A stretch of 64,000 bases of DNA, taken from Owenia fusiformis. Its lineage: Eukaryota. Location of the stretch: NCBI GenBank assembly GCA_903813345.2, contig CAIIXF020000001.1:11470001-11534000 (forward strand), given 5' to 3'. The notes beneath the pieces were generated by a model. The model was not told where the DNA came from. It searched no databases and worked only from the letters and a program-made list of their open reading frames with translations. The first letter of the stretch is position 1. Every line of letters begins with the position of its first letter. The position numbers and the translations under genes were made by a program. Positions 1 to 36,916 of this stretch are shown here, piece by piece.

Positions 1-1
1 C

Positions 2-6483: not shown

Positions 6484-6497
6484 GGAGGAGAAGCAAA
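6484..6497 (+). other. Polypurine tract of the Gypsy element
   Basis: GGAGGAGAAGCAAA lies immediately before TGT at 6498 and is preceded by the hairpin AGAATGCG-gga-CGCATTCT. Confidence 0.75.
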
Positions 6498-7959: not shown

Positions 7960-8158
7960 CAGGCCTGTAGCCAGGATTTACCTGGGGGGAGCAGTTTTAC
8001 CAAGGGAGGAGTTTTTGCCAAGGGGGCAGCTTTTTGACAGTTTTGGCAAAAACTCATGCGAAAAGTGCTCAGAATGGTGAAAAACTGCATGATTTTGAAA
8101 GAATTTCTGACCAGGGGGGAGCAGCTGCTCCTTTCGCTCCCCCCTGGCTATGGGCCTG
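7960..8158. mobile_element. MITE with CAGGCC...GGCCTG termini and 5-bp TSD
   Basis: TIRs CAGGCCTGTAGCCAGG / CCTGGCTATGGGCCTG, flanked by TATTC on both sides. Confidence 0.8.
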
Positions 8159-10180: not shown

Positions 10181-10226
10181 AATCAATCAATCAATCAACC
10201 AATCAACCAACCAATCAACAACCAAT
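10181..10226. repeat. (AATC/AACC)n microsatellite
   Basis: aatcaatcaatcaatcaaccaatcaaccaaccaatc read directly. Confidence 0.8.
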
Positions 10227-13200: not shown

Positions 13201-14299
13201 CTCCATGTTACTCCATTTGTGCCTGTCTGTCAAGAAATAAAATTGCTTCAATTACATTCACAGCAAGGAAAGCAAACCTAACATAACTCTGATTAGAGTG
13301 TAACACAAACATTTATAAACAACCAACCACATATCTCAGCTAACAACATTTCATATCACATGTGTAACTAGCTCTTAGGCTAATGAATAAGTCATGGAGG
13401 AAATGATGTTCCTTACCCTTTTGAGAGAAAAACACATGGTTTAAGATCACAGTTGTATAAATACTGACCTCCTCCTACTCATACTCCCGTGGATTTGGGG
13501 TAAGTGTGTGTAACTATTTTTTGTAAACCATGCGTGACATACCTTACTCATACAGTGCTGCCCTCTTTTAAATTAACCAAGAATAGTTAGAATATTTTGA
13601 AGAATCAATTTAGTTAGTAAACAAAATACATGTAGATGCATTACTTTACAAAGGCTTTGTTATTTATTGCTTTAACCTTGTATACAAAGCTTTGTTTTGA
13701 TTGGGGAGAAATTTCTGGTATTAATACTAAAACCAGGTGTAGGACCTGTCAACAAAAGTTCACAGCCAGTTGGTGTTTGTTTCCAAGTTGCTATAAAAAT
13801 ACTCAAACCAATTTGTCTATATCTGTTTTATATATCATAGTTGAGTGACAGTCTTTTTCCAAATATCTTGTTCATTATTAGCATCTCTGATTTATCTTAC
13901 AGATTTAATTTGGTTTAGCAAAAGAGGCAAATATTTGAAGAACACCCCAGTAAAGCATATTTAAATTATAACTGAGATCTATGAATTGCACCTCAGCTCT
14001 AAAAATCATCTTCCAAATACATCTAAAAATAGAATATATAATTCATGATACTCATCAGTTCAATGTTATATCAGTCATAATATGTAATTCATGAAGGCGA
14101 TTAGTTCAGTGCTGTATTAGTCAATAGAGCAAGGCATAATAGTTCAAGATAAAGCAAGTGCAGACAATGAACTCCTCACATACAAGAAAATACTCTGCTA
14201 CTCTTTGATTTTGCTCTTTGTTATTATGAATGCAAATTCTACCTCAAAATTAAACACATGTAATAGAGCTGAATGATTTGATGTTTTTTATATTTACAG

Positions 14300-14426
14300 G
14301 GTGTCCTGAATATTGTTGACTCTTCAAAAAGGGTGCTTCTACAGGGTGTCCATGAACTCTATGACCAGCAACCAACAACAGAGTGGGAACCAGAGGAATC
14401 AAGGACCAACACAGTAGTATTTATAG
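14300..14426 (+). CDS. ZNG1: ZNG1/CBWD (COBW-domain zinc-regulated GTPase), penultimate coding exon, CobW_C domain
   Basis: tttacAG acceptor and GTgag donor. Translates GVLNIVDSSKRVLLQGVHELYDQQPTTEWEPEESRTNTVVFI(G), matching the recalled CobW_C pattern KG...QGVHELYD...W...RTN..V.IG of vertebrate CBWD1. Confidence 0.9.
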
Positions 14427-16633
14427 GTGAGATCGAATTTATTTTTTCAAATTGACTTAATTTTACAATGTTGATACATTGATCATTGACAAGTATAAGA
14501 TTAAACTTGATACATTATGTTTAGTAATTTGAATTCTAGATGTATAATGTGCTGAAAAATAACATATAAAAAGTGCAACACAAATTCCATAAAGTCTAAT
14601 GTGTTGAAAAGAATCTTGGTATATATTGCTATTTGAAAGACTAGATAAAAGCAGAATTGCTACCATATGGTATAGTTTATACTAAAGGTATCATCAACAT
14701 AGCTCACTTTCCATTATTTATACCATTTATTTGAACACAGTTGATGTTAAACTGTTACTTTTCCCAAAATTGTTTTGCCAAATAAGCAAACATTTTAGTT
14801 TGTTTTATTATGTCTGTCAGGAGAACAAGCCAAAAATGGTTTAGTTACCCAGTGTGGAACTCTTCAACAGGAGGGGGCATATATAAGATAACATTCATAC
14901 TTGTTCGGCCTACTGGCTTTTAGTCATAGATATTTGAAATCGTAGGTTTGATTCTATATTGATTGATTATTTATTTTTTCAAAGTTCCAACATTTGTGAT
15001 GCAGGAGCCTATAAACCTGCACTCTAGACATCATCCAAACTGAAGGAGATTAAGAAAACACATCTTGTAATAGTGTAAGCCAACGGGGAAGAATTTGTAA
15101 TTGGTAAAACATTTCATGATTATCCTTGATATTTCAGATTTTTCAAGCATTTTTGCACAAGCTTTTATTTGATATATTATACTAGCCCTAGACATATATT
15201 GATGCTTATTAATCAAACTATACAAGGTACCTGGGGCAGGTTATCATACAAGGGTTCAGAATTATTTGACTGATCACCCTGTATAGTTTGATATGTCCCT
15301 ATTGAGTCAGCTGCTACATACAGGGTGTTAAATGATTGCTATAACTTCCCTTGTCAATCAACCTTGTATATTAAATCAAGATTAAATTGCCAACTTCCAC
15401 ATGTTGGCCTTACCAAGCTTTGATCAGGGAACCTCCAAACAAACTAACCTTGGTTTATTTTAAACCAGCTCTCTCAAAATAAAGCTAATAACTTCAGAGC
15501 AATTTTTTCCAATCCAAACACAAACTGAAGAATCCATATGGTTATTCCAAACAAACAGCATGCATTCCGGCAGATTTGTATTCCACTTTAAAATGTTTAT
15601 TCATATCATATATTTCACTGCAGGTATCAAGCTAGCTAAATTCTATCCACTAGACTTCTCTAAGCTATCAACATGTAAGCTTTCCAGTAAGGAGATGATC
15701 TCTAAAGATAACATCAACACCCCAATCTGTCTCATCTCTTTCACATTGAAAAATCTCATATCCTCCACCAACTAACAAATTGATATTGAAAGAAGGGATA
15801 AAGAGAGTATTTAGCCATGATAATTTCACTTTGATATTGGGTTTTAAATCAGTAGAAAATTTGATCAAATCTGTTAAATATTTTTGATTACAGATATCGG
15901 CCAATTTAATTAGAACAAGGAAAATGTTGAGATTAATATTACTTAATGTAATCAGAAAATTTGAAAATTTCAGTGTTGGTTAAGAATTGCACTTTACTCA
16001 TAATCAATTAAAAAATAAGTGTAAAGGTAATTTGTACATAAATAAGATGAGCATGTGGTCAAGAAGGGTGTCCATTAGAGACAAGTGTTCACTGGAGTAA
16101 GGTGTTCACTAAGACAGGTTACTGTATGTGCTTTTTGATGATCATCCTTGCCTTGTTCCCACGTTAGTGTCATATTTTCTCTGCAGTAGTCAGTTAAGCT
16201 GTTGTTGAGTATGCTGTGTCAGTCGTATTCGTGGAGCCACACCCTATGGGTCACCTGTGTTTAGAACCCCTGTAGCTCTCTGTGTATGTCGCCTGTGTGG
16301 ATCCCTACAGGTATCTGATTACAGGTGTATTGCTGGAGCAGATCAACTATAATGATTGATGCTTGATTGTCTTTTCTCATATATTGATTGTTTTGAATAA
16401 ACCAGTGGATTGTTGATCAAACATAACTTAACAAAACAATTTAAACATATCATGTTTTTCAGCTATTAAAAATGAATCAAGATATATTTGATTGGTTTTT
16501 ATTGTGGTAAGATCTTATGAATTATGGTGAGAAATTATAAGTATGATTGATTTATTATCCATTGTACACTCTGTCTATCATTAAGAGAGTTATAAACTGT
16601 TTGTAAAAATTCAAAATAAAATACAAAATGATG

Positions 16634-16795
16634 CAGACTCGTAGCTCCTTTTGCCAAGGGTTCTCTTTTCACAAATTTCCAGGGGGGGCTCATATTTGAC
16701 AACTTGGCTCAAAATCACTTAAAAAGTGCTCAATGGTGAAAAACTGCATGCTTTGAAAGAATATTTGGCTAGGGGGGTTACAGACTATGGGCCTG
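16634..16795. mobile_element. Degenerate second copy of the 7960 MITE family
   Basis: Shares AAAAGTGCTCA..ATGGTGAAAAACTGCATG..TTTGAAAGAAT and the CTATGGGCCTG end; flanked by TGATG on both sides. Confidence 0.75.
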
Positions 16796-18153
16796 TGATG
16801 TGTGCCCATATGAGTTATTAGTGATTAGGGTCATGCAGGGCTATTTTCAAAAGCAGATTTAACATCATTAGTAAATACATATTGATTCTCAAAGTTCTTG
16901 TTTAATCTCAATATTGTCATTACCATTGTGTTCACCTGCTGTATGTGGTGGTTTGAGAGCTTCATCTGGCCAATTAATAGTGGCACAATCAGTTGTATCA
17001 CCAGGTAGCCCCAACACTTGTCTGAATTCAGCATAGCACACAGTCCTGAGAAAACATCGCTAATCTCCAGTATTACCACACACAACTTGAAATACAAGGG
17101 GAAAAATTGTAGGTTCTTGTAGAGATACACTAAATATTTTTTGTCATGACACTTTTTCAAAGTGTTATATTGTCATCATATTGGGCTGATGGGCATATGT
17201 CTGTGTGGGTGGGTGGGCCGCCACCACATGAATCTTGTCTTAAATTGACCAATTTTTATACAATCTTATTTTAGAACTCAGTTTTGATGTATTGATATAG
17301 TCTTACTGAATATTACAAGAAATCTACATTTCACCCTGGATTACGACAGCCACGGACATCGAGGATACGCTCCACTCGTGTATCTCCAATAGGTACTGAT
17401 ATGTGTGACCACGTCTTATTTGGAAAATTTCTGAAATAAATTGTATAATGTAAACACGGCTCCTTGAAGTCATGTGGCTTGTTTGACCATCTGAAGATAC
17501 TGATGTAATGTAAATAGGTTTAATTGTAATTGTTTTGCCAGTTGTTTTACAAATAAGATAAAAAAAATGTGCCCTGGGTATACAGTGGTTGTGGTCAGGC
17601 TGTCAGATATGCACTATATTCCCCATGTATATGCCAAAGTAGTACCGGCAGTCAGCTTCATGGTTGTGCCATTGGTGTCGTGTCAGAGAAGCAAATACAC
17701 TATCTTTTTTTTATTTTAAGTGTCAGTCATGCTGTTTCAAATTGAATAATAAAAATTTCTTCTAAAATAAATAAGATTTGATTCACAATTATGTCTGGTT
17801 TCTAGTTAAAGCTTAAAAACTAGAAGTACATGCAAAATGGAGATAACACAACAAAAATCCTCAATATCCTCAGACAACAAAAGTCCTCAATTTTGGCATT
17901 GATTTTATGTATGAAAGTGAAATTAGGTTTTTGAGCCATGTTGTTGAGTGATATTATAATGATAACCTATGGCGGACACTGTTCATATACTATATAATTA
18001 CAATCACCATGATTATTATGCATATTACCAAAAGGATATATGTCCCATGTGATGCGTACTTGTTCCCATTGAGTTGAAAGTTAGGCAAGAATAATATCTA
18101 CCCCATGTTCATCCATGTAGGTAGACCACAATGTCCAGCCACTTTGGCATTTA

Positions 18154-20057
18154 TTATGTCACCACCAAAAGTGGTGACATATTGTTATGGTCTCCGTTTT
18201 TTTGCGACGGCGTCCGGCGGTTGGAGGTTGGAGGTTGGCGTCCGGCGGTTGGCGTCTGTAACAATTTCTTACAACTTCCTATAACTTAACAAATACTGTT
18301 TAGACTGACTTCAATTTTTTTCTAAATCATCTACATGTTCTCAGAAGTTCAAATCTGACTTTAGATTTGACATTTGACCTTCAATGACCTTCTCAAGGTC
18401 AAAAAGGTCTTTTTTCAACTTGCTTCACATTGACTAATTTTTTTTTCAAAATCATCTACATGTTCTCAGAAATTCAAATCTGACTTTAGATTTGACATTT
18501 GACCTTCAAATCTGACTTTAGATTTGACATTTGACCTTCAATGACCTTCTCAAGGTCAAAAAAGGTCAAAAAGGTCTGTTTTCAACTTGCTTCAAATTGA
18601 CTAAATTTTTTTTTCAAAATCATCTACGTGTTCTCAGAAATTCAAATCTGACTTAAGATTTGACATTTGACCTTCAATGACCTTCTCAAGGTCAAAAAAG
18701 GTCAAAAAGGTCTGTTTTCAACTTGCTTCAAATTGACTAAAAAAAATTTTCAAAATCATCTACGTGTTCTCAGAAATTCAAATCTGACTTTAGATTTGAC
18801 TTAAGATTTGACATTTGACCTTCAATGACCTTCTCAAAGTCAAAAAAGGTCAAAAAGGTCTTTTTTCAACTTGCTTCAAATTGACTAAATTTTTTTTTCG
18901 AAATCATCTACATGTTCTCAGAAATTCAAATCTGACTTTAGATTTGACATTTGACCTTCAATGACCTTCTCAATGTCAAAAAAGGTCAAAAAGGTATTTT
19001 TTCATCTTGCTTCAAATTGACTAAATTTTTTTTTCAAAATCATCTACATGTTCTCAGAAATTCAAATATGACTTTAGATTTGACTTTGGATTTGACATTT
19101 GACCTTCAATGACCTTCTCAAGGTCAAAAAAGGTCAAAAAGGTCTTTTTTCAACTTGCTTCAAATTGACTAATTTTTTTTTCAAAATCATCTACATGTTC
19201 TCAGAAATTCAAATCTGCCTTTTCGATTTGACATTTGACCTTTAATGACCTTCTCAAGGTCAAAAAAGGTCAAAAAGGTCTGTTTTCAACTTGCTTCAAA
19301 TTGACTAAATTTTTTTTTCAAAATCATCTACATGTTCTCAGAAATTCAAATATGACTTTAGATTTGACATTTGACCTTCAATGACGTTCTGAAGGTCAAA
19401 AAAGGTCAAAAAGGTCTTTTTTCAACTTGCTTCAAATTGACTAATTTTTTTTTTCAAAATCATCTACATTTTCTCAGAAATTCAAATCTGACTTTAGATT
19501 TGACCTTTGACCTTCAATGACCTTCTCAAGGTCAAAAAGGTCTTTTTTCAACTTGCTTCAAATTGACTAATTTTTTTTCAAAATCATCTACATGTTCTCA
19601 GAAGTTCAAATCTGACTTTAGATTTGACATTTGACCTTCAATGACCTTTTCAAGGTCAAAAAGGTCTTTTTTCAACTTGCTTCAAATTTACTTAATTTTT
19701 TTTCAAAATCATCTACATGTTCTCAGAAGTTCAAATCTGACTTTACATTTGACCTTCAATGACCTTCTCAATGTCAAAAAAAGTCAAAGAGGTATTTTTT
19801 CAACTTGCTTCAAATTGACGAATTTTTTTTTCAAAATCATCTACATGTTCTAAGAAGTTCAAATCTGACTTAAGATTTGTGTGCAACTAGTTTTAACTTG
19901 CTTCAGATTGAACAATTTCTTTTTTCAAAATCATCTACAAGATCCCAGAAGCTCAAATCTTCAAAAACATTCTTAAGGTCAAAAGGTATTTTCCAACTTG
20001 CTTTAAATTGACCAAATTGTTTTAGGTGGTGACATTTTGTCATGTTAATGCCTTGTT
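18154..20057 (+). mobile_element. Non-autonomous Helentron-type element (HINE/DINE-1-like) with internal ~130 bp tandem array, copy 1
   Basis: 5' palindrome ATGTCACCAC-caaaa-GTGGTGACAT, GGCGTCC/GGTTGG microsatellite, about 13 tandem units, 3' sub-TIR GGTGGTGACAT, then TTAATGCCTTGTT; T-rich junctions and no TSD. Confidence 0.8.
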
Positions 20058-21587
20058 TTAGTGATGTCATAATAACAAAGATGTGTAACAGTAGTGTACT
20101 TTATGGTGTTACTTAGTGCATATACAGTAACACAAGTTAATATGAACACCTTCTTTTAGTGAATACATAACTTCATTATATCACTGTCATATTCCCCACT
20201 CTCTTGTTGGTCTACACATTACATGTGACTTAGAAATAAGAAAATGTATTCAACGGCCTTGCCAGTGACATCAGAAACTTTTTGCACTTTCAGAAAACTT
20301 ATTGCACTTTCAATGATTCCGCAAGGTGTATTCCCCTAAGGGCTTAGAAAATACACCTTGCTAGAATCATTGAAAGATGAACAGATATTCACCTCAATAG
20401 TATGAAATATTTGTATATTATTGGACAATACTATGTAGTGAAAACCTCTCAGAGCATTAACATGAATGGTTATATCATAAAGGTTCGAGGACAATATTGT
20501 CATGTAGTTAATTTTTAACATTTCTTTGTTTTGAACACATCCCTGTTTTGAACATCTGTCTTGATGCAGCCAATGAACCCCTTTCTGAAGTAAACACCTT
20601 ACTGCAGTAGGTGTCTTCCCTCAAAATTTTGAATCCATCTATTCCTACTTTGAGAGCTGTAAAAACCAACTCCTGTGTGCACTTCTCATACAAACTGTTC
20701 ACTGTTAGGGGTTTCTCTGTATTATACCATCTAATATGTACAGGTGAGTGACCACAAGATCAATTTGATGCCAGTGTAATCCTTTAATTATTATTCTTTT
20801 GTGATAATGGATTTATCTATTATATCATCCTTCAATGTATGTAATCTACACCTGTGCCTTTCTTTAATCTTCCAATGAATTTTCCCATTGTTTCTTGTTT
20901 GACCTTTGTTTTGAGGAACCTATATATCATATAAGGTCTATGTCTACATATATCACAATATACACTATACAATGTACACATTTACTCAAAGAAAGCCATG
21001 CCATCTTGTCATATCCCAGTAGAAATTTAAACATTAATTGAAGCAAAAACTAATACAGCAAAATTAATAGGTATTGTTTTCCTTGTCATGACTATATGAT
21101 TTTGTTTTTCAAATGTTACAATTTGTGCTTTCTGAAATATCACATTGATGCTATGTTGCCATTTTTTATATTTCACCTGTAGAGCATGTGATGCACATTG
21201 AAGGTATCATATCTTGGGAGGACTAGATACTCTCACTTGATTAGAGAAATTAGCGAAAATTACAGGCCACACTTCATGTAAACTCTTTCCCCCAATGACT
21301 CAATCAGCCATTTAACATCTATCAAACACTTATAATGATAACTTTTGACATTAATTAATATGAAACTTGAGTCTAATATTATGGTTTGTGATAGCTGATA
21401 TAGGTGTTATCTGTCAGAATATGCTGTGTATATTAGACTGGGGATCCCAGAGGCCTGGCTGTTTGGGCACTTTCAGTACAACAATCCAACTGTGTGGACT
21501 AGATATTGAAATAATTATTTATTCATCTGTCCTGTTTCATCTTCCTTTTGATCAAGTGATATTTTACACCCCTTTGCTAAACATTGT

Positions 21588-21679
21588 TTTAGCACAAAGG
21601 ACGCCTTATATGGCGTATTTAACACAAAGGCAGCCTTATATGGTATATTTAACACAAAGGCGGCCTTATATGGCATATT
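21588..21679. repeat. 30-bp tandem repeat, 3 copies
   Basis: TTTAACACAAAGGCRGCCTTATATGGYRTA unit read directly. Confidence 0.85.
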
Positions 21680-22386
21680 AGGTGGTTGGAATTGAGTCTC
21701 TCATCAACATTAGGAGGATGACCATCCTAATTATGATTCATTAAATCAATATATTTGGCCTCATTTAATTTTTATTTTTTATTAGATATTTCCTTTCTGA
21801 AGTCATATGAAAGGGGCAACATTTGGAAATCCATGATCGTAAAAACTCTATTTCATTTAGCCACTAATTAACCTAGATAAATACAAATGTATATGTATCA
21901 TTACCAAGAATGAAAGTTCAATGTACTTTGACGGAATAGATTTTTTGTACTTTATTTTTCGTACTTTACTGTCATGTCACCTGTGGGGGAATAAATAATT
22001 TATTTGATGTTACATTTGTGTTGATTTTTAAAAAATATAATGGCTAGATATCCTATTAATTATAGATGTGGAATTTATTTTCAATGTAGTATTTATTCTG
22101 TGTATTGGATTTTTTGTCATCCCCAGAAGTGGTGACATATTGTTATTATTAATTCCATGAGAATGATTTAGATATGTTATCCTTTCAATCAAAATGGTTA
22201 TAGTGACAATAAACTGAATGAACATTTGTGAGTTTATTATTAATGAAATGTATATTGTTTTGTATTGTGATTTTACCATCAATGGATGTGAGCAATACCT
22301 GTATATTTAACTGTCATAATAATCTTGGATGGCTGATCTGACTCTGGAACCCCTTCTTGAAGGATTCCTGTTTTCTTTTATGTTTA

Positions 22387-23010
22387 CTGTACTTCTACTT
22401 AATTTGGCACTATTTATTTTGGCAGATTTGCTGTTTTGAACATTTGGTGGTTACGTAATTTAGCGGACTTACAATATTGAAATCTATATACATGTACATT
22501 TACTATACTTTTTTACGATAGACAAGATGCGAGTAGAAATATTTAAATACAAGTATATAAATATGAAAATTTAATTTTTTTGAAAATGTGACTTTTAGTT
22601 CGAGTTGATTCCCCATACAAAATTATTTGACAGATAACATTTTCTTTTACTGGACATATTTTAATTTGGTAACTCTTTTCTTATATGAAAATTGAACCTC
22701 TAAAACAGGGAACTTTCTACCATACTCACAATTTAAGTTAAAGGGAACTTTCTACAATACCCGCAATTTAAGTTAAAGGGAACTTTCTACAATACCCGCA
22801 ATTTAAGTTAAAGGGAATTTTCTACCATACCTGCAATGCTATCTGACCCGAACGAGCCACCTGGTAGTGGAACTGCTAACTACCTACTCACATCTGCATT
22901 ATTGGGAGATGAAATGTTGAAATTGGCAGCTACTTAATTTGCCTGACTTAAACAATTTAACGGATTCGCCAAATTAAAACAGCCACCATGCAAATTAAGA
23001 AGAAGTACAG
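22387..23010. mobile_element. TA-flanked MITE (Tc1/mariner-pogo type) containing a nested element
   Basis: TA-CTGTACTTCTACTTAATTT ... AAATTAAGAAGAAGTACAG-TA inverted termini. Confidence 0.75.
22707..22837. repeat. 35-bp tandem repeat (~3.7 copies) inside the nested element
   Basis: AGGGAACTTTCTACAATACCCGCAATTTAAGTTAA unit. Confidence 0.85.
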
Positions 23011-26000
23011 TATTCTATTCATACATGTATATAGATATACAAGTTCATACCACAGCCTTTTTATAAGCACCAATTGGTCTGGAGTTCCTACTTTCTGTGT
23101 GGTTAGCTACTTGAATATTATGTACCTGGGGGCAAAGCCAGACACATTATTTTACTGAAATATATTCTTTCAGAAGTTTTTATTTCAAAAGTGAACTTGA
23201 CAATGAGGTTCACTTGCAGTAAATGTATTTTACTATTTTATAGCTCATTTATTTGTCAAAATCTACAGATATTCAAATCGAAAACTTTCTCAGATTTACA
23301 GTCAATTACTGGCCTAGGTGTCTGTTGTTTAAGTTACCAGTTACATCATAATGTGTCTTTCTTTTGAGGATTTATTAATATTTGAATGTGTTGAGTTAAT
23401 AGAATAATTATCTGAGAAAAGACATTTCACTTTGACGTGATAACATGGACTTTCTATGGAGTATGATTTGCCTAGAACAACATTTTGTTTATAGATTTCA
23501 AAAATGATTTTAACCAAAATTTAATAATTTAATCTAATGTCTTGCAAACTATTGCAGTAACTTAGCTTCTATAATTCTTGTTTTATTTCAAGTTTTTGAA
23601 AATCAGCGATGGAGTCAAATTTTGAAAATCTGAAAATTAAAGCAAAAAGAAATAACCACAAAATTTCAAAATTCGAAAAACATTAAATACAATAGCGTCG
23701 AACATAACCAGGAGTATGTTTATATTTGGAGAAATAATGGACAATTGTTTCATTAACAGCAGTTCACATGAAAAACACATCGAATTGTTTTTTTCAAATT
23801 GTCTGTTGTTTTGAAGAACTTCCCATGTTAGAATTCCAATTTTTAGTAATTTTGCCTGTTGTCAGATTAGATCTATTGAAACCCCTGATGGAGAAATAGA
23901 CCTCAGGGGGAGGGTGGCCCCTAAGCAGACACAACATAGGAAGCCCCTTGGGGGAGATGAACCAATACAAACAATGCATGTAATGAAGCTGGTAATACAG
24001 AGGTACCTTGACAGTGGGAGATATACATAATGAGGGAACTGATACACATACTGACAGTGTTTTTAAAAAACAATTGTACATAGGTGCTTGGTTAAGGCCA
24101 TTGTGGATGACTCAAAAAAAGTCCTCTGTTGTCATATTTTTTATAATATTTTACAGAGGTTTGCATTCATCGGGGGAGGGGGCAAATTTGAAAGTATATT
24201 ATAAATATACAGGAAAATTAGGAAAAGTTTAATTTTTGTAGACAAAGTCAAGACTCGGTAGGTTTTTAATTAGACAGCATTGTAGTGTAATGATATGGCT
24301 AGCTATCCTTGCCTCAGTTGTAAATACCTAATTAGCCAGGTTGTTAATTAAGTCCCATAGAGTCCCATGTAGAGAGCTAGACCATCCTCATTAGCAGAGA
24401 TTATGTGTAATGAAGCCAACACATCCTGCAAGTATCTACCCATGTACATCTCAAGCCATCCAGAAGAATCATTGTGCACATAATTTGTTAAACATAATCT
24501 ATGATCGAGTGCAAAAAACCATGAAATGTGTAATTCTTGTTAACTAAATTTAACAGTTCCCAACTGGGTTTAACAAGATATAAGCCACCTTAATAAAGTA
24601 GATCACAAGACGGAGCACTTTATTAATTGCTAAATCAAGAAAGTTAAGTAAATTTTCCAAGAGGGGTGCCCTGCACTTGAGCAGGAACTAAGCCTATATT
24701 TTGGCTCTAATTCGCTTTGATCTAGTATTATACGGATAAAAGTACAGTTAATATTAATTTTTATGGGAACAATTTAGAAACTACTAAAAAGATTTGCCAC
24801 CTGCTTTGATAGGAATGTGAATGAACTCCTTTTGATTATGCTGTTTCATTCTGACCTTTTTCTACAAAAAATTGAACTGTTCATTTATTACGATATTTTT
24901 AGCTATATAACATCCGTTCTTTATTAATGACAATACAAAAGAGTTAGGTCGATTCAGTTTGTGTACACCACATGGTTTATAGGGTCCCATTTAATAGGGT
25001 TTTTATCAAAAGAATGCTTTTTGTAATAGATTTAAATGGTCATTTTGCTCCCGTCATTATATTGCTTAAAAGTGCTTTCACACATTCTGTTCCAAAATAC
25101 AGACCGCACAATAGTGTCAGTTTTAAGAACGATTACTTGTATCAATAAGTTTATGATTTGTTTTTTTTCTCAAATATCTGTTGTGTTCTTTTGATATTGT
25201 ATGTGGTATTGAAACTTCAGGGGCAAGAAAAATAGTTAGAGGGCATGATCAATAAAACTGTAAAAAACTTACCCAGAGCAATCAAAACATTTGCTTTAGA
25301 GACAATATAATTTGTTTGAAACGTAGTGTTTACCAAAACACCACTGGGCCTTTACTTACAGGAGATTATTGAAATTAAGTTGGACTGCATTCCAGACCCA
25401 ATACAGCCCAAAACTAAGTGAAACTGGAGAAATATTGGATATTTTGTTTTTATAATAGAAACAATTATCCTGCTTAAAAAAGCCAGTTAGGAAAAGACCC
25501 GAGGCATTTCTGCAATAGACTGATTATTCTATATCTGTATGGATTTCCATTGCTCCACGAAGGTGACACCTCGCACAATGGGAAAGTAAATAGTAAGAAA
25601 GGTTTGAGAGTTTTGTGAGTTGGTACCCTATCAGTCTACCATATTTGCCATATGGGACATGAATTGGTTTGAATGAATGCTAAGAGGGGGATAATTCACA
25701 CTAATGCGTTTCTATTCACATATCTCTATATATTAAGATTGAATACTAAGCTGTATACATTTAAATAAATAAATAAAAAGCAAGTGATGAATAACCAAAC
25801 AAAAATAAGAATCTTTACAAAGCCACGCTTCTATAAATAAAAAATAATGAATGGATTTATGTTGATCTGTATTCACCAGATGATATGTTATAACATATGA
25901 TTCGAATTTGCATAATTATAAGTTCATCTAAGTTTGGGGTTTTCCATTTTGCCATCAAGTAGCAACTTTCAGCTGTTGTATGGTAGAAAAAAATGGAGAT

Positions 26001-29000
26001 GAAAAAAATGATAAGAAGAAATATTTGACAGTTATAAAATAAAAGTTGCATATGACGAAAAACATATGTGTCAGTGTTATTTCAGTTGGTTCTTGTTCAA
26101 GTCATCTGTTTTGTTATCCATGAACAATGAAAAAAATAAGCAAGTTGGAATCGGGCTGGTTTTAATAAGTAAATCAAATACATGTTTTAGGTTAAGGTTA
26201 ACTAAAAAGAGAAATTAGATAAAACATATTGAAACATTTTTGCTGAAGCAATTTATATTTTGAACGTGAAGCTAAGTTCCCTACGGAGTCACAGTAATAC
26301 AGAGTAAAGTAGTTAAATTCCTCCAATAACATTTTCATCTAAAGAAATAGACTGCATAAATGATATTAACTTGAGCTTTGTCAATTAAGGAACGACATAA
26401 CGAAGAACAAATAATCCTTGTTTGGCTCTAATTGGGATGCATTAAGAGTGAGATTAACCAACGTGACCTGAAAGCTTTAGTAGCCGTCTCATCATCTTCC
26501 CCGGCATTTGAAAACATTTTGATATATAGAAGCACCAAACACATGATGCTATGAAAAGCCAAATGAATTTAATCTCAGTTCTCTTGCTGTAAATCTAGTT
26601 TAGAGGGTCCTTAATCAGTCATGGAGGGTGTTGATGGCAGTTCTAATCCAGCAAATAAGATACCTACATGCTAGCAATAAATGTTTAGTTGAGATGAGAC
26701 CCAGAGATAATAGCCAGCTTCTTGACAAATTAACCAATTTGTTGGGGATCTAATTACATGCTTTCTCTGGGCTGCATCTCATTGTGGACCACTTGTGTGT
26801 GTTTTATGCCTGCTTAAGTTATTACTTGATGAAATACTCCCAATTTGTGAGACAATCATGAATGAGACTGACTTGGAGTGGCCATGGGGGAATTGTCAGG
26901 TTAAATGACCCTCTGAACCTTTTGTCTTTTGCTTTAGTCTCCCTTATTACTTTTAACATCTCAATCTTAGCAACTGCCACAAACATGGATTTAAATCTTA
27001 AACCCCAGCTTCGTTAATTAAAGATATTAGAAGTTGGTTTATTCAATTTATTTCACATTGATTTATTTGACATTGAACAAAGTTTTTCAAAAATGTTGTA
27101 GATCTCAAAAGAATTCTTGAAAAGTCAATGAAATGTGCACATTCTTAATAACTGTCTGTTTATTGATCAAAAAGTACAAAGGGCAACAATTAAATATCAT
27201 AAATGCTTGTTCATAAAAAACCAATAGGCCTAAATGATATCACATAGCAAAACTATTATAAAGCCAACTGTATGCAGTAGTGAGTCTGATCCAGTAATGA
27301 TGCCAACCGTAAGGTGTTGAATGAGGTAATATTTGCAATAAAGGTAATTTTTAAAAATTGTTTCAATTTCATTATCTTTTGAAGCATTTTTTATTCTTCA
27401 AGTTGAGATGGTCTCCAGGGATGGACCCTGGTATGTGAGCAGTATCTATTTTTGTTTTCATGAAAAAATTATATTCATCAAGTTTAAAATGTCTTTGATG
27501 TGTTCCATTGTATGGACAGCCCCCATTTTTCATTTTATCAAGACTGCAAGATTCTTTTGCTGAACTTGAGACGTCCCCTTGTGATGATGCTGTAATTGTG
27601 AAAGAGGTTCATTGAGGGGCATGTATCGGATTAACCCAACCACGCCCTCTCCACTGACAGTTATCCCTAGATGCAGGATTAACCCCTGCCATAGGGATTA
27701 AACTTGATTACCACTTGGCAGATTCCAATATGGACAAGTTTACTAATGATTAATGGAGTTTTGAATAGTTTTCTATCATGCATTTATTTTAAGTGTAGGA
27801 ATAGAGTGGGGGTTTAATGTATGATTTTATATGTATTAAATTTAGAATTTCTAAAAGGTCTAGTAAAATATTTTAATTACAAGGTGTTCAAGAAGTAAGG
27901 TTAAAGACTCTGAGAATTCACATGGAATTATTTCAGTTTTCTGTCATGCGATTATTTTAGGAGGAAAATAATTATGGTTTTATTTTTATTTTTACACCTT
28001 TATACTACAGTTGTAATACTTATTATCAAATTCTTAAGATGATTTTTAATCATCCTTTGATAAAGTTTAAGCAACACAACATCAACTTTTTAGAACCATT
28101 AAATACATTTTGTAAAACACAACACATGGTTTTCATTCATATCATTGTCAATGTACCTCTTATAAGTGGTCCAATCTGAGTTGAAGCTACTTTCACTAAA
28201 ACAATAGTTTGGTTCCTTGTCTAATGGTAGATTGATGACTGTTTATGAAAATTTCCCACATTGGCTGTGGCATTAATAGGGGCTTTGGGGATAAGTTTGG
28301 ATAGGATAACAATATTATCTGAGATATCAGAAACATTTGGGAAGATGATCTGAAGGTTATCTCTTCATGCTTTTAAGGAGGCATCTGACAAGATCAACCT
28401 GTTATTGTTGTTAAATGTTTTTATTTTTCTTTATTGTGATTTCTTGGTGGACTTTAGGTTAACCTGGAAGTGCCCTATGTATTGATTGCAAGTGCTTCCC
28501 ATGCTTTATGTTGTTTCTGCGCCGTCTCTTTAACAAACATATTTTCGTTATTCATTTTAACAATAGGTGAGTTTTAATTAAAATCAAATGACAAAAGCAA
28601 ATATCGTAGCATTTCAAGTCCTGATAATAAAAGATTTGCAAAGAGCCTGTGGGGAAACTGTTCAAAAAAACAATATCATTAAATATAAATGAAATGAAAG
28701 ACTCTTTATTGCATAAATTTTACGCTTTTCAATCTTCGCTAATGCAACTCCAAACAATGCAAATTCCTAATTCATGTTTATCGATATACTTAAAATGTAT
28801 TTCTCAAGACTTTTTCACAGTTTTTGAATAGTTGATTGATTTTCTTCGTGGGGTGAGCCTCTGATACAAAATCGAACTGGCAAAGAATAAAGAAAATATT
28901 TCCATTTGTTCATTGAAAATTCAAACAATAGTGTATTTTAGTAAGTTGATGTTTTCTATAGGCACATCGATAGCTTCTCAATATCACTTCAGTTTGGCTC

Positions 29001-29640
29001 ACAGCAACAGCGTCATTAAGTTAACGGTAACTGTTCCGGTTATTATTGTAAGATGTATTGTTTCCACCCATATCAGATATCCAATAGCCCAAGTGCTTGT
29101 CACTTTCACTGCTTTTGTTTTTGTTTCTATCACCAATAACTGTTTACAAATAGGGTGTAAAGGTGCTGTTTGTCCAATTGATCAAAAAGTGTCTCTATCC
29201 CTCCTTCCATGTTGGACTGACATTGGAAGTGCATAAATGAACATGTAAAAATATTGAAATCACTTTCATTGATTTAATGCCATACTAAGTGCATATGATT
29301 TGGAGTTTTGGACCAATGCCACATTGATGATCTTGCCTAATTTTATTTTTGTAGGTTTTTAGGTAATAAACAATATTTGATGTTTTTCAGTAATTTCTAG
29401 TTTATTATGTACTTTGTAATGATGTTCTTTTTGCTTTAAGAACTATTTTTGGTCATATTTTGTAGATCTGAAGATCAGAGAGAAATGTAATCATTTCCCC
29501 CATCTGTTTCTGAAATCATGGATTTACATAAACTAATGCTTGAAGATAAATAAGGAGCACAATGTCTCTATGACATTTGTGACACAATTGTGTAATACAC
29601 CCATATGTATATCAAGATCCTGTTCTGTTTGTGTTTCCAG

Positions 29641-29702
29641 GCAAGAACCTGGAGAGGGGTGTTCTGCTTGATGGACTCGAGGGATGTTTGGCACAACACT
29701 GA
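29641..29702 (+). CDS. ZNG1: ZNG1/CBWD final coding exon
   Basis: Pyrimidine-rich ...tgtttccAG acceptor, phase-1 compatible with the donor at 14427, giving (G)KNLERGVLLDGLEGCLAQH*, the IG[RK]NL...L..C ending typical of CobW_C. AATAAA at 29901-29906. Confidence 0.85.
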
Positions 29703-30514
29703 TGGCCCAGAACAGAAGCAGTTAGCGGGACTTGTTCCAGCTTCCTGGCCCAGTTGAGGATGATGGGAAATCCAGACTCAGGCACTACAAAGGCATGCCT
29801 GTTTAATGAGGGAATTCTCTGGAATTTCCCATGTTCTTTGGAGTGGCTTGACAGCAGAATCAAAGTGTTGATGAGCACAAAACAGCATGTGTTAGACCTC
29901 AATAAATATTGATTGTACAAATGGGGCTTTCACCAACCTTCACATTAACCCTCCAATCTCTGAAGAGGCGCATGAGGTAACCTGCTGAATTATCAGTGAT
30001 TCATGGGTTAACTTAGCAGAAAATAGCCAGACTTGGGATGAAGTACTTTGAGAAAAGCCTGGAAAGTCGATTATCATTTGGAGTGAAGGCAACTCTGCTA
30101 AGGTTTATTGACACTGCCAGGCTTAGTCGATAAATTTTATGGAATACAAACAAATGTGTAAAGAATGAGTGGCAGCTGGAGAAGGCAGTAAACCAGACTG
30201 CTTGGCACCATTCATTAATGGCTGCGCTTGTTGAACCCCCTCTAGTGGAGGGTCCTGATAGACTGCATGGCTCCATCTGGGTCATAGCGTACTTTTAACA
30301 CTAGACTGCATGTCTCCCATTATGGGTCATACTGGTACATTCACTACTTGAGAATGTGGGTTTCTCTTCCTTAAATATAATGAAAACTGAGCATTCCTGT
30401 TGTATTTGAGATACTTTTGGGAATACTTGGTGGAAATGTTTTTGAAGACGGTTACATTTTATCATCATTCTTGTCAGGAAATCATTCTTGTCGGAATGTT
30501 TCCATGTGATTTTA

Positions 30515-30665
30515 TTATGTCACCACCAAAAGTGTTGACATATTGGTATAGTCTCCAACTTTTTTGTGGATAGTGTTTGGTTGTTGGTGTTCAGCGTTCA
30601 GCAGTCAGTGTTCAGCATCTGCAACAAATGGCAGGTGATGACATTTTGCTCGTTAATGCCTTGTT
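30515..30665 (+). mobile_element. Short HINE-family copy without tandem array
   Basis: Same 5' TTATGTCACCACCAAAAGTG.TGACAT and 3' GGTGATGACATTTTG...TTAATGCCTTGTT ends as 18154-20057. Confidence 0.75.
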
Positions 30666-30823
30666 ATTTGTTTTTATGACCTCACCAGCCAGTGATATAT
30701 ATAATTGTGATTTTATTTTTGTCTTACCAGTGTGTGTCATTGTAATTTATGATTTCACACCCATCAGTTAACATTGGTTACCATTTGTTACATTTTGCAG
30801 TGATTTCTTATCTTTATGGGATA

Positions 30824-30881
30824 TACACTCCCCTCCATAAGTTGGGGAGCTAAGGTTGCCAAACTTATGGAGGGGAGTGTA
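30824..30881. repeat. Perfect 20-bp inverted repeat with 18-nt spacer (miniature TA-flanked MITE-like hairpin)
   Basis: TACACTCCCCTCCATAAGTT ... AACTTATGGAGGGGAGTGTA. Confidence 0.85.
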
Positions 30882-31943
30882 CTTGTCCATGGTATTACCA
30901 ATGACCCACTTTCCTAAAAGTATACCTTCCTATGTACTAAATTGTTGGTAACTTGTGAATGAAGGAATCATCAGAACATTTCACCATATGAGCCCACCAA
31001 ATGATGCCATTTCAGTTAAAGAACCATGTATAAGAACTATGTATCTCATGTATATATCTTCTTGTGACTGTTTTTGTCTCACCAGTGTGTGTCTTTTTGA
31101 TATTTTGTCTTACTGAAATCTTTCTTTGAAACTAAGCCAATGTTTCACTGTATTTTTGTTATTTTGTTCTCTTCTCACCAGTTTGAATCATTGAGTGTCC
31201 TTCTTTAAATTAGATGTATGATTTAGTGTCAACTGTCAATCTTGTTATTTTTCTTTTACATAGTTGCACTGTGTATCATTTAGCATGATTTGGTTTTGGC
31301 TTTAACACCTTTAACACACATGTAGCAGGCTATATATAGAAATGACTTCATGGTTTGATTTTTTATTACTAAATGTAATATTTTTTTCATTTGATTCATT
31401 ACTGTGTACACTTTACCACAGAATGGCAAAATGAGCCCCACCCAGTGTCAATTGTATAGTTTCTAAATAGCTGAATAATGCTGACATAATAGATGTCACC
31501 CTTGTTTGTCTTTGATTTTCTTGGGGCAGATCTCCATTCACCTCAATGCTAGAAACTTGCATAAGTCAATAATTTCAAGATTTATTAAAAAGTGTTGGTT
31601 GAATCTGTCTGAAATTTGAATGGCATACTATTGGATGACCCTGTCAATGTTCATATTGTGATGAAACATGAAAATGTTTGTTGTCATACGAATAAGCCAA
31701 GCTTTTAATGAATTTTAGTATTGCCCCAATGGAGATTTGGCCCAAATTCAAATATGCTATCAAAAATAAAGGAAAGTAAGTCACTAGAGATAAAAAGTGC
31801 AAATCTCTTAAAATCCCATGAAAAACTAGAATTAGCAAGATTTCAAAGCTATTTAGAAACTCCTCTATTGGCAAAGGGGCTCTTGTTGATTTCTCAGTGT
31901 GAATTTGTCAATTTGATACAATTGCTCATTAAATTCTTCATTT

Positions 31944-32060
31944 TTATGTCACCACCACATTTTAGTGGACATTGTTTGGTGGTTGGTGTTTGGCAGTTGG
32001 TGTTGGAATTGGCCTCTGTAACAAATGGCAGGTGGTGACATTTTGCATGTTTGCCTTGTT
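31944..32060 (+). mobile_element. Short, degenerate HINE-family copy
   Basis: TTATGTCACCACC start; CTGTAACAAATGGCAGGTGGTGACATTTTG...GCCTTGTT end. Confidence 0.7.
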
Positions 32061-32077
32061 ACTAAATATTGTAACAC

Positions 32078-32222
32078 GATACATCACGTCCCAGAAGATC
32101 ATGCACACACCCAGCCACCAATAATGCACCAGTATGGATTTTGTTTTGTTTATCTTTCTTGTACATACTGGTGCATTATTGTTAGGTGGGTGTGTGCACG
32201 ATCTTCTGGAACATGATATATC
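32078..32222. repeat. Foldback element, ~59-bp arms with 27-nt spacer
   Basis: 32078-32136 is the reverse complement of 32164-32222 with about 7 mismatches. Confidence 0.85.
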
Positions 32223-34920
32223 ACACTGTGTCAGGAAGAATTCAGGGAAATGGAATGGCTTTGTAAAGGTTAAGGCTATAATAAATATTTGCTACCACAC
32301 TTAGTTTTGTTCTTATTTTGTTGTTTACTGTTTCCTCTTCTTGGTTATTTGAGAATGGGAGCTTATCTCTGAGAATGATGAATCACCTTCTATGTTAGCA
32401 GACTGCGTGGCACCAAAGGCTCTATTCTGTCATAGCAGCTTTCCACAGCCTGTTGTCATAGATCATCCAAACATAGATTGCAATGTTGTGCCTGTAAAAA
32501 AACAACTTCACAGCATCATAAACCACACTCGAACATTTGGACCAACATTGCAAATTGCGTTTGATGGACACAACAGTTAAATAAAAACATTTATTTAGAG
32601 CACTTAAAAGAAGGGCTCACTGAGAAAAGGAAGCTTTGTAAAAAGTTATCCCGAACTTCTATTCCACTGGGCTCTCTCTATAACATGAGTAAATCTGTAA
32701 AACAGCTTTCAAAATTGGGAACTCAGCAACTGAAGGTGTTAACCAGAGTTTGCATAATCTCTCTATAATTTATAGAAAACCCTCAATGATAAATCACCCA
32801 CTTGGATAACGCTAATGTGAATTTCTCCCGCCAAGAATGTGCTCTAGTTCCTTAGTTCACTGTGAAAGATAGCAGACTGCTTGGCACCAAGGAGTGAACC
32901 TGATGACCTGGGGGATCCAGTTTCAAGTTTCAGGGAATTCCACTGCTTAATGCCTTCCGTTCTAATCAACTAGAGTTTCAAGTTCTGGTCAACAACTTAT
33001 GGTGGGCCTCGGTCAACTAACTTGGTGACGCATAGAGTCAACACCATCAAATGTTTAATGGTTTTAATTATACCGATCATCTGTGTAAACATTGTAGACA
33101 TTTCTTGTGTTATTTATCGGCAGATAATTCACCAAGATGAAGTCCCCGGGATGAAGTCATAGAATTTTTACCAAAACTGTTCACCAGTTGGAATTCATAA
33201 ACTAAATATTTGTCAGATACAACAGCGCTGTGTAATAATCCCAAGAGGTGCAAATACTTGAAATAAATTATGAAATGAAGAAAGCTAGTGTTTTGTCGAG
33301 AGAAAATTTGATAGTTTAATACATGGAAAACTTAGGCCCCACATTGAGTATAAAAACAGCATTCAATCTCGCAGGTTACAAACAGTTGTTTTGTTTCATA
33401 TCAGTTTACTTAATAAGTTTTTGGATAGATCCTGTGTATTTGGAATGATGTAGTTTGGGACGTGAGCATAGCAGAAATACAGAGGAAACTGATATTAAAT
33501 AAATAAACCAAGGGTTGAGTATGACTTCGACCCGTTTTGATGTTCATATGGTTCATAATTAGCCCAACGCAAACAGATAACATTTACTTTTTCAACGAAA
33601 ATATATTTTTGTTAGTATGGTGCTAGGTTACATTTGATTGTGCTAATTTCTGTTTTCTTTTGCTACTGACATTTTCATCTTGCCTGCATTTTCGAGCAAC
33701 TTTCTAAGTATGCTTTTGAGACTTGGCAAATTGCAGATTAACTCTTCAGCAGGTTTTTGACATGATGTTTTATTTAGTGTTTCCATCAAAAAGTTACCCT
33801 GTATTGTGCGAATAAAAGTGCGCTATGGTTAATGGCGTTTAATTCTAATAATAATATACTAACTTAAATTATTCATCAAATTTACCCAGGATAAGGTTTC
33901 ATTTGATACTTTAGACAAGTGTGTTTCAACAATTGATATTTAGTACCAACTTCATATCCAAATATTATAGAAGTATCTAAACATTGTCCTTGTGAGAAAT
34001 AAACCAACAAATTAACTTTTTCAAATTAAGGTCAACAGGGTTAAATTCTCTTCCTAAAACCGATGACATACATGAAAAATTGTGTATGTTTTCGGAGTAT
34101 CATCACAGCTAAGTAATGAGAGTAATGGGTTACATTGCATCTGGCCTCCATATGGGAATTTCTTAAATGTTCTGTGTATTCTACTCTGTGTTTCTTCTTC
34201 ATGTTTAGATGAAGAGTATTGCCTTCTCAAAAGTCATTATCAGCTTCATTCCTGCCAAATTGTTTGAAAGACGACATATTACCAGTATCTTATTGGCAAA
34301 ATATTTTCTCTGTTTATTCGGAAGTTTATTTTTAGTGAAGAACTGTTTATCAATTTGGAGGCCGGTGTTTAGAAGACATTGCTGCTTCAAGTAAATTGCC
34401 GTTTGTTGGAATTCTTAATATCTCCCTTTCAGATTTTCCGTACCTGGACGATTTTGCAGCCCTGTTTATTGTTTCTTTACAATCTCCTATATCAGTGGGT
34501 GTAATCTTTTTAAAATTGAAATCTTTATTTTATACCACAAGAAAATCATATAGATGGAGAATGAATCAATTTAAACATTATATCATAAGCTAGGGTATGT
34601 TGAATGGTTAACAGTCGGTATTTCAAAGAAAAATAAACAATATACTTTTGCATTTACAAGTTACACATGCTCCCATTTGTCTCAGATAATTTCATTTAGA
34701 AATAAAGGGTAAAACACCCATAATCTCTATAAGGTGCCTGGGTGTTTCTATTGGATTCCGTCCCCTGGTACGCTTATTTACCAACAGAGAATTGCTCTAA
34801 ATGCGACCCATTGGTGGGATAATAGTGACAATAATCATAATCCGTCTTTTGGAAACAAATCCGCGCGAGCCGATCGTGTAGCAAGTGCCTACAAATAGGT
34901 TAGAGACTTGTTTCTGAATA

Positions 34921-35070
34921 ATCGCTAGCGTTTGTAGCGATTGGCTGAGAAAACCAATAATTAACAGAAGGCGGAGCAGCCAAGTGGCTTCCATTGGCGT
35001 TCCGTACCGATATCGACAGTGAGCCTACCACGTGATAGACTTTGATTAGTGTTTATTGACAGCTCGTGTT
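34921..35070 (+). promoter_or_regulatory. Candidate FoxD proximal promoter
   Basis: CpG-containing segment ~400-500 bp before the ATG with ATTGG (34940), CCAAT (34954), an E-box CACGTG and TTGACAG. The TSS was not determined. Confidence 0.4.
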
Positions 35071-35428
35071 GAAGCTCTTTACAACGTCTATGGTCATTGA
35101 AACAACTTCTGATTTAGACCTTCTTGCTTATTTAGAACGAAGTGGGTGGCTGACCCTCAGTTTTGAGAAAACCTGCGAGCAGTTGACATCTCAATAGACG
35201 ACGCAACTAACAAGAAAAACGAACGTCACGCAATTATAACTGAAAGTTAGCTTCAAAAAAGTCGCTTCCGTATTGGAGCAAATAAATATTTGTTAACACT
35301 AGCGATAAGATCAAGCATTGGTGAAATCATAAGGATTTATTAACGAAATTAGACATTTTTGGCTTCAGCTGAGGACATCACCCTCTACGAGTGAGATGAT
35401 CTGATCCAGATCATTGAATGACTTTAAA

Positions 35429-36916
35429 ATGCGTTTCGACATTGACACTCGATACAGAGAAATGATCGTATTGACACCAAGAGAGCAGAATATTGTGAAT
35501 CAAAATCAGGACTTAAATCTTTCCATAAAATCTGAAGATATGGAGCATTCTGAGGATCTAGCACATTGTGATAATATGAGCGATAACTCCGAAGGATCTG
35601 AACAATACGAGACGGAACCCAAGCCGAGATCGGGTGGGAAAATGAAGGGTCTCAAGCCAAGCGAAATCGAGATGATCCGTAAGGAAATGGAACGAAACAT
35701 TGACGATGAACCCGCAGAAGGTGAGACAACACTTGACGCTGATGGCAAAAAGAAGAAAACCAGTCTCGTAAAACCTCCTTATTCCTATATAGCTTTAATA
35801 ACAATGGGGATTTTGCAATCGCCACAAAAGAAATTGACATTGAGTGGGATTTGTGAGTTTATTATCAACAGATTTCCGTACTACAAAGACAAGTTTCCTG
35901 CCTGGCAAAATAGTATTCGTCACAATCTCTCTCTAAATGACTGTTTCATAAAGATTCCCCGAGAGCCGGGCAACCCTGGCAAAGGTAACTACTGGACTCT
36001 CGACCCAGCTAGCGAAGATATGTTCGACAATGGCAGCTTCTTGAGACGTAGAAAACGATTTAAAAGACAAATGCCCGATTATGCGTTTGCCCAGCAGCAA
36101 GCTTTTATGTCCGCTAATGAACTGTACGGGCACCACCCTGCACTTCTTGCAGCTCACCACCAAGCTGCAGCAGCCGCACATCATCATCATCCAGGACACC
36201 CGACCCACGCTCTGCCATATCCTTACATGGCCCCCATGCACGGACAGGGAGGCCTTTCGCTCATTCCACACCCAGATCTAGCCAGAGCGCATGCAGTTAA
36301 CCCAATGGGGCTTGCAATCTCCCCTCAACACATACAAACATTGCAACGTAGCCTACAGAGAGACATTGCACCTTGTAATAAAACATTATCCAGTGAACAA
36401 CATCTGCCCCAACACTCTGAGCTTGGAAGGGCGCACGTAACTAATCCACTGGGACTAACAATTCCCCAGCACCAATTGCCAAGTGTCCCCAAAGAAGCGA
36501 TTCGCCCCCATAAACCATTGACGGTCAGTACGACAATCGTATCATCCAGAAGCCCAACCTCTAGCAACAGTAGCCAGAAACCAGGCTTTAGTATAGACAA
36601 TATAATCGGGACGTCATCCTCATCGTCATCGCCAAACTCAGACAGGAAGTCCCCAGACTCCCCCGCCGCAGTCACATCGCATTCCTTCAGACCGCCCAGT
36701 TCATCACAGGGACATTTATTATTACAACCCGCCCAACCTGCAATGTCACTACCAGTGTCTCTTGGGATGAGACCTGCTATTTCAATGGACACTCTAAGAT
36801 CTAACGGTAATTCATTCACCAATCCCCTTCATCTGGCCGCTGCTGGCCTTCATGGGATGTCCGGTATAGACTTGGAAAAATATAGACAGTATGTACAGTT
36901 ACCCTGGCATCGCTGA
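35429..36916 (+). CDS. foxD: Forkhead box D transcription factor, single exon, 495 aa from the first in-frame ATG
   Basis: Forkhead domain [12 protein letters not shown]...[58 protein letters not shown] is FoxD-diagnostic; eh1 motif FSIDNIIG at 36587-36610. The ORF-track start at 35414 is TTG; ATG 35462 is an alternative start. Confidence 0.96.

Follow-up and report, generated by a model that had tools for sequence, protein, structure and literature searches.

The ZNG1(CBWD)-FoxD gene pair in the annelid Owenia fusiformis, a probable instance of an ancient linkage kept by a genomic regulatory block

A catalogued gene pair and its copy in Owenia

For several pairs of animal genes, including Isl-Scaper, Otx-Ehbp1 and FoxC1-Gmds, it has been proposed that gene order is fixed because a developmental transcription factor has its enhancers within the long introns of an unrelated neighbour (PMC3514665 and PMC7530604, in the parts accessible to us). 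Blocks of the Isl-Scaper type have support from circular chromosome conformation capture (4C) and reporter assays in vertebrates and amphioxus, whereas we found none of this kind for ZNG1-FoxD in any invertebrate. We analysed the ZNG1(CBWD)-FoxD pair in a 64,000-nt stretch of the Owenia fusiformis genome (contig CAIIXF020000001.1, positions 11,470,001 to 11,534,000, forward strand), henceforth referred to as the window, to which all coordinates below refer. The window contains the 3' end of a ZNG1 gene and, downstream of it on the same strand, a FoxD gene. We consider it likely that this locus is a copy of the ancient, catalogued ZNG1(CBWD)-FoxD linked pair, held together by a genomic regulatory block (GRB) mechanism. 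Both the microsynteny and the GRB interpretation are already published, and the Owenia locus adds one more, unexceptional example of a conserved pair already known.

The pair is listed by Touceda-Suarez et al. 2020 (PMC7530604), whose list adds the results of a de novo search to the pairs published by Irimia et al. 2012. Table S1 of that study gives it under GRB_ID 39 as pair "11.0 [FOXD4=CBWD1]", with FOXD4 linked, FOXD1/2/3 unlinked and CBWD1 as the single bystander. The same entry has an N_NVsp of 5 and the key GRS=01011101. We took N_NVsp, from its column header, as the number of non-vertebrate species or lineages, and the key as marking the Irimia set, which is our own unconfirmed reading. 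FOXD4 and CBWD1 are consecutive on human chr9 in Table S3, and the ancestry of the pair is given as "Metazoans" in Table S4. The latter table also pairs a highly conserved non-coding region (HCNR) inside CBWD1 (hg17 chr9:150124-150231) with a paralogous element near FOXD3 (chr1:63177032-63177138, McEwen ID 386). Irimia et al. (PMC3514665), in the accessible portion of the paper, report that bystander genes have more and longer introns and argue that the retention of such pairs is not neutral. The first-pass annotation of the window had proposed that the locus matches a human CBWD1-FOXD4 adjacency and represents an ancient microsynteny, possibly a GRB. Table S3 documents the adjacency, and the "Metazoans" ancestry supports the rest of the proposal, which was already in print.

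We compared the locus with the closest described systems. Vertebrate CBWD1 (ZNG1A)-FOXD4 consists of the same two orthologous families as immediate neighbours, an intron-rich bystander and a FoxD partner of the trans-dev (transcriptional and developmental regulator) type. Human FOXD4 lies 3' of CBWD1 (ZNG1A) in the same tandem orientation that FoxD has relative to ZNG1 in Owenia. The two systems differ in copy number, as Owenia has one FoxD and one ZNG1. Vertebrate FoxD genes form a set of four ohnologues, and FOXD4 alone among them has retained the partner. In primates, unlike in Owenia, the pair has been duplicated, with CBWD2 and FOXD4L1 co-located (PMC10496407, accessible part). They also differ in that vertebrate CBWD1 carries an HCNR, whereas the Owenia locus is known here from its genes and composition alone. 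The foxL1-foxC-foxF-foxQ1 cluster is likewise a conserved Fox linkage, of a type studied in Owenia by Seudre et al. 2022 (PMC9539403). That cluster is made of paralogues and is broken in Owenia, whereas ZNG1 and FoxD are unrelated genes and their linkage is intact. The accessible text of Seudre et al. covers Fox-to-Fox linkage only and does not mention ZNG1-FoxD. Among the publications listed in our literature searches, none describes the Owenia ZNG1-FoxD locus itself, and those listed for alternative names of the two genes dealt with clinical copy-number variation and metal chaperones.

Structure and orthology of ZNG1 and FoxD

We delimited the following features of the locus in the window:

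1-14299, + strand: 3' part of the penultimate ZNG1 intron, which is longer than 14,299 nt; the exon upstream of it is off the window
14300-14426, + strand: penultimate coding exon of ZNG1 (exon A), 127 nt, residues 311-353, part of CobW_C, with the last codon split in phase 1
14427-29640, + strand: last ZNG1 intron, 15,214 nt, GT...AG
29641-29702, + strand: coding part of the last ZNG1 coding exon (exon B), the rest of codon 353 and residues 354-372
29703-35428: ZNG1 3' untranslated region (UTR) and ZNG1-FoxD intergenic region, 5,726 nt
35429-36916, + strand: FoxD coding sequence, a single exon of 495 aa plus stop
35771-36025, + strand: Forkhead (winged-helix) DNA-binding domain, residues 115-199 (Pfam PF00250, E 9.5e-37)
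36587-36607, + strand: eh1-type motif FSIDNII, residues 387-393 (regular-expression match)
36917-58000: gene-poor region downstream of FoxD, with CpG observed/expected ratios (o/e) of 0.61-1.14 in 2-kb bins, near equilibrium

The ZNG1 exons are bounded by canonical splice sites (acceptor ...tatttacag and donor gtgaga at exon A, acceptor ...tgtttccag at exon B), and the frame ends with a TGA stop at 29700-29702. Joined, exons A and B make 189 nt, and the 62-aa translation agrees at every position with residues 311-372 of P0001, a public 372-aa "unnamed protein product [Owenia fusiformis]" whose precomputed Pfam annotation is cobW plus CobW_C (PF02492, PF07683). The 42-aa translation of exon A had 100% identity to P0001 in a protein search, and exon A alone matched CobW_C (PF07683) with an E value of 2.1e-6 (28 bits, cutoff 22). 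A tblastn search of the window with P0001 matched just exons A and B, which places the coding sequence for residues 1-310 upstream of window position 1. A poly(A) signal, AATAAA, is present at 29901-29906 on the + strand, about 200 nt past the stop, and is the sole canonical one in the following 1.3 kb. If this site is the one used, the ZNG1 3'UTR would be about 200 nt long.

We assessed the orthology of the upstream gene by aligning P0001 with ten named ZNG1/CBWD proteins, from another annelid, a nemertean, a brachiopod, a mollusc, a hemichordate, a sea star, amphioxus, gar, a sea anemone and a sponge. P0001 was 56-64% identical to the proteins of these ten species, from sponge to gar, over at least 95% of the length. 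The ZNG1/CBWD family is defined by the P-loop GTPase motifs GxxGxGKT, ETTG and NKxD together with a CxCC metal-binding motif. GxxGxGKT (G39-T47), GCLCCS (96-101), ETTG (126-129) and NKxD (193-196) were invariant in the alignment; in P0001 these GTPase and CxCC residues are encoded upstream of the window. The tail encoded within the window keeps the family residues Q325, V327, H328, E329, L330, W339, F351, I352, G353 and L361. The family C-terminus FIG(K/R)NL spans the junction of exons A and B in the alignment and is preserved in Owenia. Among the best 120 protein matches of P0001, all named entries were ZNG1/CBWD or CobW-domain proteins, and the only relative of solved structure was bacterial YjiA (157 bits). 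Taken together, the alignment and searches support the identification of the upstream gene as the single animal-type ZNG1 orthologue, a COG0523 G3E GTPase and predicted zinc chaperone; the assignment is by full-length similarity to named orthologues rather than by a formal tree that includes the paralogous COG0523 branches. ZNG1 is a zinc-dependent GTPase that transfers zinc to METAP1.

The downstream open reading frame (ORF) encodes a protein identical to a 495-aa database protein, whose contig matches that of P0001 in size (62,201,769 bp). We ranked its forkhead domain against solved structures. The highest scores were those of Genesis (2hfh/2hdc, 222/213 bits), which we take to be FoxD3, compared with 162 bits for FoxC2 and less for the remaining Fox classes (L2, A, G1, K and others). 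The best named protein matches were FoxD or FoxD1/D3-like, with up to about 80% coverage, and came from molluscs, brachiopods, a nemertean, hemichordates, echinoderms and a priapulid. The exceptions were three entries near the top of the list named FoxE3, FoxK1 and FoxC2, whose matches span only about 20% of the query and are probably due to low-complexity His/Ala stretches. We also built a quick maximum-likelihood tree of 18 sequences. In it, a branch with a Shimodaira-Hasegawa-like approximate likelihood ratio test (SH-aLRT) support of 96 separated the Owenia protein and 14 named FoxD proteins from FoxE3, FoxC2 and FoxK1, and the Owenia protein nested among spiralian FoxD. We note that this tree includes only three outgroup classes, from a quick search, and that the FoxK1 and FoxE3 branches are long.

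The C-terminal eh1-type motif, a Groucho-binding motif, was found at a comparable position in 14 of the 14 named FoxD proteins examined. It is not specific to FoxD because the FoxE3 and FoxC2 entries also carry it. The name of the motif and its Groucho-binding role are as given in the accessible part of PMC3627651. The ORF is one uninterrupted frame, that is, intronless, as are clade I Fox genes (PMC9539403, accessible part). The assembled evidence supports the assignment of ORF 35429-36916, as a predicted protein, to the FoxD class of transcription factors. In the accessible text of Seudre et al. 2022 (PMC9539403), an Owenia foxD, which may be the gene at 35429-36916, is expressed in organogenesis and larval development. 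No TATA-like heptamer occurs in the 1 kb before the FoxD ATG.

We searched for genes that might separate the pair. Across the window, including the last intron and the spacer, 68 ORFs of at least 70 aa outside the known genes gave no significant Pfam match, and one match below the cutoff (KH_BICC1, E 0.0045) is attributable to chance. There was no Rfam family in the window, and the tRNA scan returned 0. There is thus no recognisable gene between ZNG1 and FoxD by Pfam searches of ORFs, Rfam and tRNA scanning, a combination that small exons would escape. By the immediate-neighbour criterion used for ancestral microsyntenic pairs (PMC3514665, accessible part), ZNG1 and FoxD are direct neighbours with no intervening Pfam-matched ORF. 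The first-pass annotation had described two ZNG1 exons, a 15.2 kb last intron and a FoxD gene 5.7 kb after the ZNG1 stop on the same strand. The exons are borne out by the splice sites, the exact match to P0001 and the CobW_C match, the distance from the ZNG1 stop to the FoxD ATG measures 5,726 nt, and every coordinate and distance proved correct. The ZNG1 and FoxD assignments, which it had put forward for checking, both hold.

Conservation of the linkage and the case for a proposed regulatory block

We asked where else the two genes share a contig by comparing contig sizes, per species, between the FoxD and ZNG1 protein searches (best 120 matches each). Both lists contained 18 species, of which 17 were usable; Batillaria was dropped because its contig size was absent in one list. 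FoxD and ZNG1 were on the same contig in 11 of 14 invertebrates (10 of 13 excluding Owenia). These are Owenia, Lineus longissimus, Glandiceps talaboti, Mya arenaria, Mactra antiquata, Liolophura sinensis, Haliotis asinina, Dreissena polymorpha and Bradybaena similaris, together with Lingula anatina and Acanthaster planci, in which the shared scaffolds are small (937,544 bp and 1,751,410 bp). Because of these scaffold sizes, the two genes are less than 0.94 Mb apart in Lingula and less than 1.75 Mb apart in Acanthaster. In the three vertebrates the FoxD match was FoxD3, the unlinked ohnologue, and the contigs differed, as expected.

Under a GRB mechanism, ZNG1 would be the broadly expressed "bystander" and FoxD the developmental "target", with FoxD cis-regulatory elements intermingled with the 3' portion of ZNG1. 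A chromosomal break separating FoxD from ZNG1 would then cut FoxD off from part of its control region. Such a constraint would be the most likely cause of linkage since before the protostome-deuterostome split. The basis for this reading is the exon structure, orthology, adjacency, orientation and two very long 3' introns at the Owenia locus, combined with the metazoan conservation and the CBWD1 HCNR taken from the literature. The long introns expected of a bystander are present in absolute terms (15,214 nt for the last and more than 14,299 nt for the penultimate).

We computed CpG o/e along the locus. The median was 0.29 in 28 one-kb bins at 5-33 kb (the ZNG1 body plus some 3 kb beyond its stop) and 0.81 in 24 bins at 34-58 kb (FoxD and 23 kb downstream; Mann-Whitney p = 2e-8). 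The change is a sharp step at about 33000-34000, from about 0.14-0.48 (1-33 kb) to about 0.6-1.1 (34-58 kb), which places it in the spacer, about 3 kb from the ZNG1 stop and about 2 kb from the FoxD ATG. The spacer itself is CpG-depleted to about 33 kb and then has a CpG o/e of 0.6-1.0. The TpG/CpA excess is 1.32 on the low-CpG side versus 1.14 on the high-CpG side. Methylation in Owenia is mosaic and concentrated in gene bodies (PMC11292947, accessible part), so the step fits a germline-methylated bystander beside an unmethylated developmental gene. Judged from composition, it probably marks the edge of gene-body methylation.

Several observations weigh against the proposed regulatory block or limit what the linkage data can say for it. 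FoxD and ZNG1 were on different scaffolds in 3 of the 14 invertebrates (Saccostrea cucullata, Candidula unifasciata and Physella acuta). All of these scaffolds are smaller than 1.2 Mb, and the splits are uninformative because the assemblies are fragmented. In Bradybaena the locus tags of the two genes are about 749 apart, and that pair is perhaps not adjacent. In chromosome-scale assemblies a shared chromosome is evidence of macrosynteny or co-location only and not of adjacency. Robert et al. 2022, in the part accessible to us, describe an oyster CBWD1 block with OXCT1, SPATA1 and others and without FoxD, which we judged uninformative for the pair. Within Owenia, the last ZNG1 intron is CpG-depleted throughout (0.08-0.52 in 1-kb bins), and no 500-bp window with a CpG o/e of at least 0.8 occurs in it or onward to about 33 kb. 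The last intron thus looks like an ordinary methylated gene body and not like an unmethylated developmental landscape, a weak and indirect argument against intronic enhancers.

The unmethylated-looking domain appears to extend downstream of FoxD and not upstream, a pattern with which intronic enhancers would still be compatible. The stretch of about 21-23 kb that follows FoxD contains no significant Pfam-matched ORF, Rfam family or tRNA and resembles a small gene desert. It may be an alternative site (36917-58000) of the FoxD regulatory landscape. A location of FoxD enhancers in the Owenia ZNG1 introns, in particular the 15.2-kb last intron as suggested in the first-pass annotation, is a tentative proposal whose chances we put at slightly short of even; we infer it from the described pairs and not from any positive signal in the nucleotides. 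A more specific version, with FoxD enhancers embedded in the two expanded 3' introns, inside a germline-methylated and CpG-depleted gene body that ends sharply at the CpG step between ZNG1 and FoxD, seems to us doubtful. The only 500-bp windows with a CpG o/e of at least 0.8 in the ZNG1 introns are at 7455-7954 and 11455-12204, with 10-15 CpGs each. Both are in the penultimate intron and not the last, and on composition they could be candidate hypomethylated elements or noise.

Among the other explanations, passive retention survives best, and we regard it as improbable. It holds that the linkage is orthologous and has simply persisted in a slowly rearranging genome, with the FoxD elements located in the 5.7-kb spacer as well as the 23 kb after FoxD, and with the introns merely expanded by repeats. 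A full-length Ty3/gypsy pol ORF does occupy part of the penultimate intron, a 136-bp satellite and dispersed repeats occur in the last one, the CpG o/e is low and flat over the ZNG1 body and high at 34-58 kb, and Owenia has been described as macrosynteny-conservative (PMC9539403, accessible part). However, the pair is kept in human and in five non-vertebrate species or lineages (N_NVsp as read above), a vertebrate HCNR lies inside CBWD1 (both from the tables of PMC7530604), and such retention has been argued to be non-neutral, as noted above for Irimia et al. (PMC3514665). Owenia has also lost the ancestral foxC-foxF-foxL1-foxQ1 microsynteny, according to the accessible text of PMC9539403, and thus does not hold every neighbour passively.

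An independent origin, in which the adjacency arose separately in annelids and vertebrates by chance or convergence, is very improbable, and we found nothing in support of it. With a few tens of thousands of genes per genome, the chance that two specified genes become adjacent in a given order and orientation would be, to an order of magnitude, about 1e-4 or less. The shared contigs in 10 of 13 other invertebrates, on scaffolds of less than 2 Mb in two of them, are also against it, and the published survey lists the pair as ancestral ("Metazoans", Table S4 of PMC7530604). The notion that exons A and B are a pseudogene remnant or annotation artefact and not the working 3' end of ZNG1, to which the mere 62 codons in the window and the very long introns might point, is the least likely of all in view of the perfect agreement with the C-terminal end of the complete protein annotated on that contig, the canonical splice sites, the open frame, the family-conserved residues and the AATAAA 200 nt past the stop.

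With a GRB as the preferred explanation, the locus contributes one annelid example, in which exons, intron and spacer are mapped exactly, to one of the more widely conserved bystander/target pairs of animals. Existing knowledge of the pair is unchanged by it. Because developmental assay for transposase-accessible chromatin with sequencing (ATAC-seq) data and methylomes have been published for Owenia, and because the block lies within a few tens of kb, the GRB hypothesis for FoxD is directly testable there. If FoxD enhancers do lie in methylated ZNG1 introns, the locus would be a compact spiralian test case of about 35-60 kb for enhancers working inside a methylated housekeeping gene. It would also be a test case, with the ancestral architecture in single copy, for what fixes a tandem orientation over more than 550 million years.

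Repeats in the ZNG1 introns and the gene downstream of FoxD

The penultimate ZNG1 intron contains a Ty3/gypsy (chromovirus-like) long terminal repeat (LTR) retroelement in sense orientation at 1-4454 on the + strand, perhaps extending to about 5200. Its pol frame (606-4454) is uninterrupted over 1,282 aa and matches protease, reverse transcriptase, RNase H, integrase and chromodomain in Pfam. A gag-like frame at 2-601 has a weak CCHC match. The 5' end of the element is off the window, and its LTRs are not delimited.

A satellite occupies 18287-19960 in the last intron, with a 136-bp unit repeated about 10-13 times (88% matches, about 1.4-1.6 kb), and yields a series of spurious 50-aa ORFs on the + strand. 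Short dispersed repeats with 88-89% identity are found in the last intron and the spacer (18150-18203, 30511-30564, 30615-30654 and 32012-32051), with weaker copies at 8895, 9025 and 22108. They probably represent a family of small non-autonomous mobile elements. Adjacent to them is a 59-nt inverted repeat at 32078-32222.

The first recognisable gene downstream of FoxD encodes an ankyrin-repeat protein (60606-62125, - strand). Its N-terminal exon (61577-62125, with the start Met inside) contains at least four Ank repeats. A second frame (60606-61469) encodes a long Ser-rich tail that had no Pfam match, and the protein atlas search for the gene family returned generic ankyrin-repeat clusters only. 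Splicing of an intron of about 100 nt probably joins the two frames.

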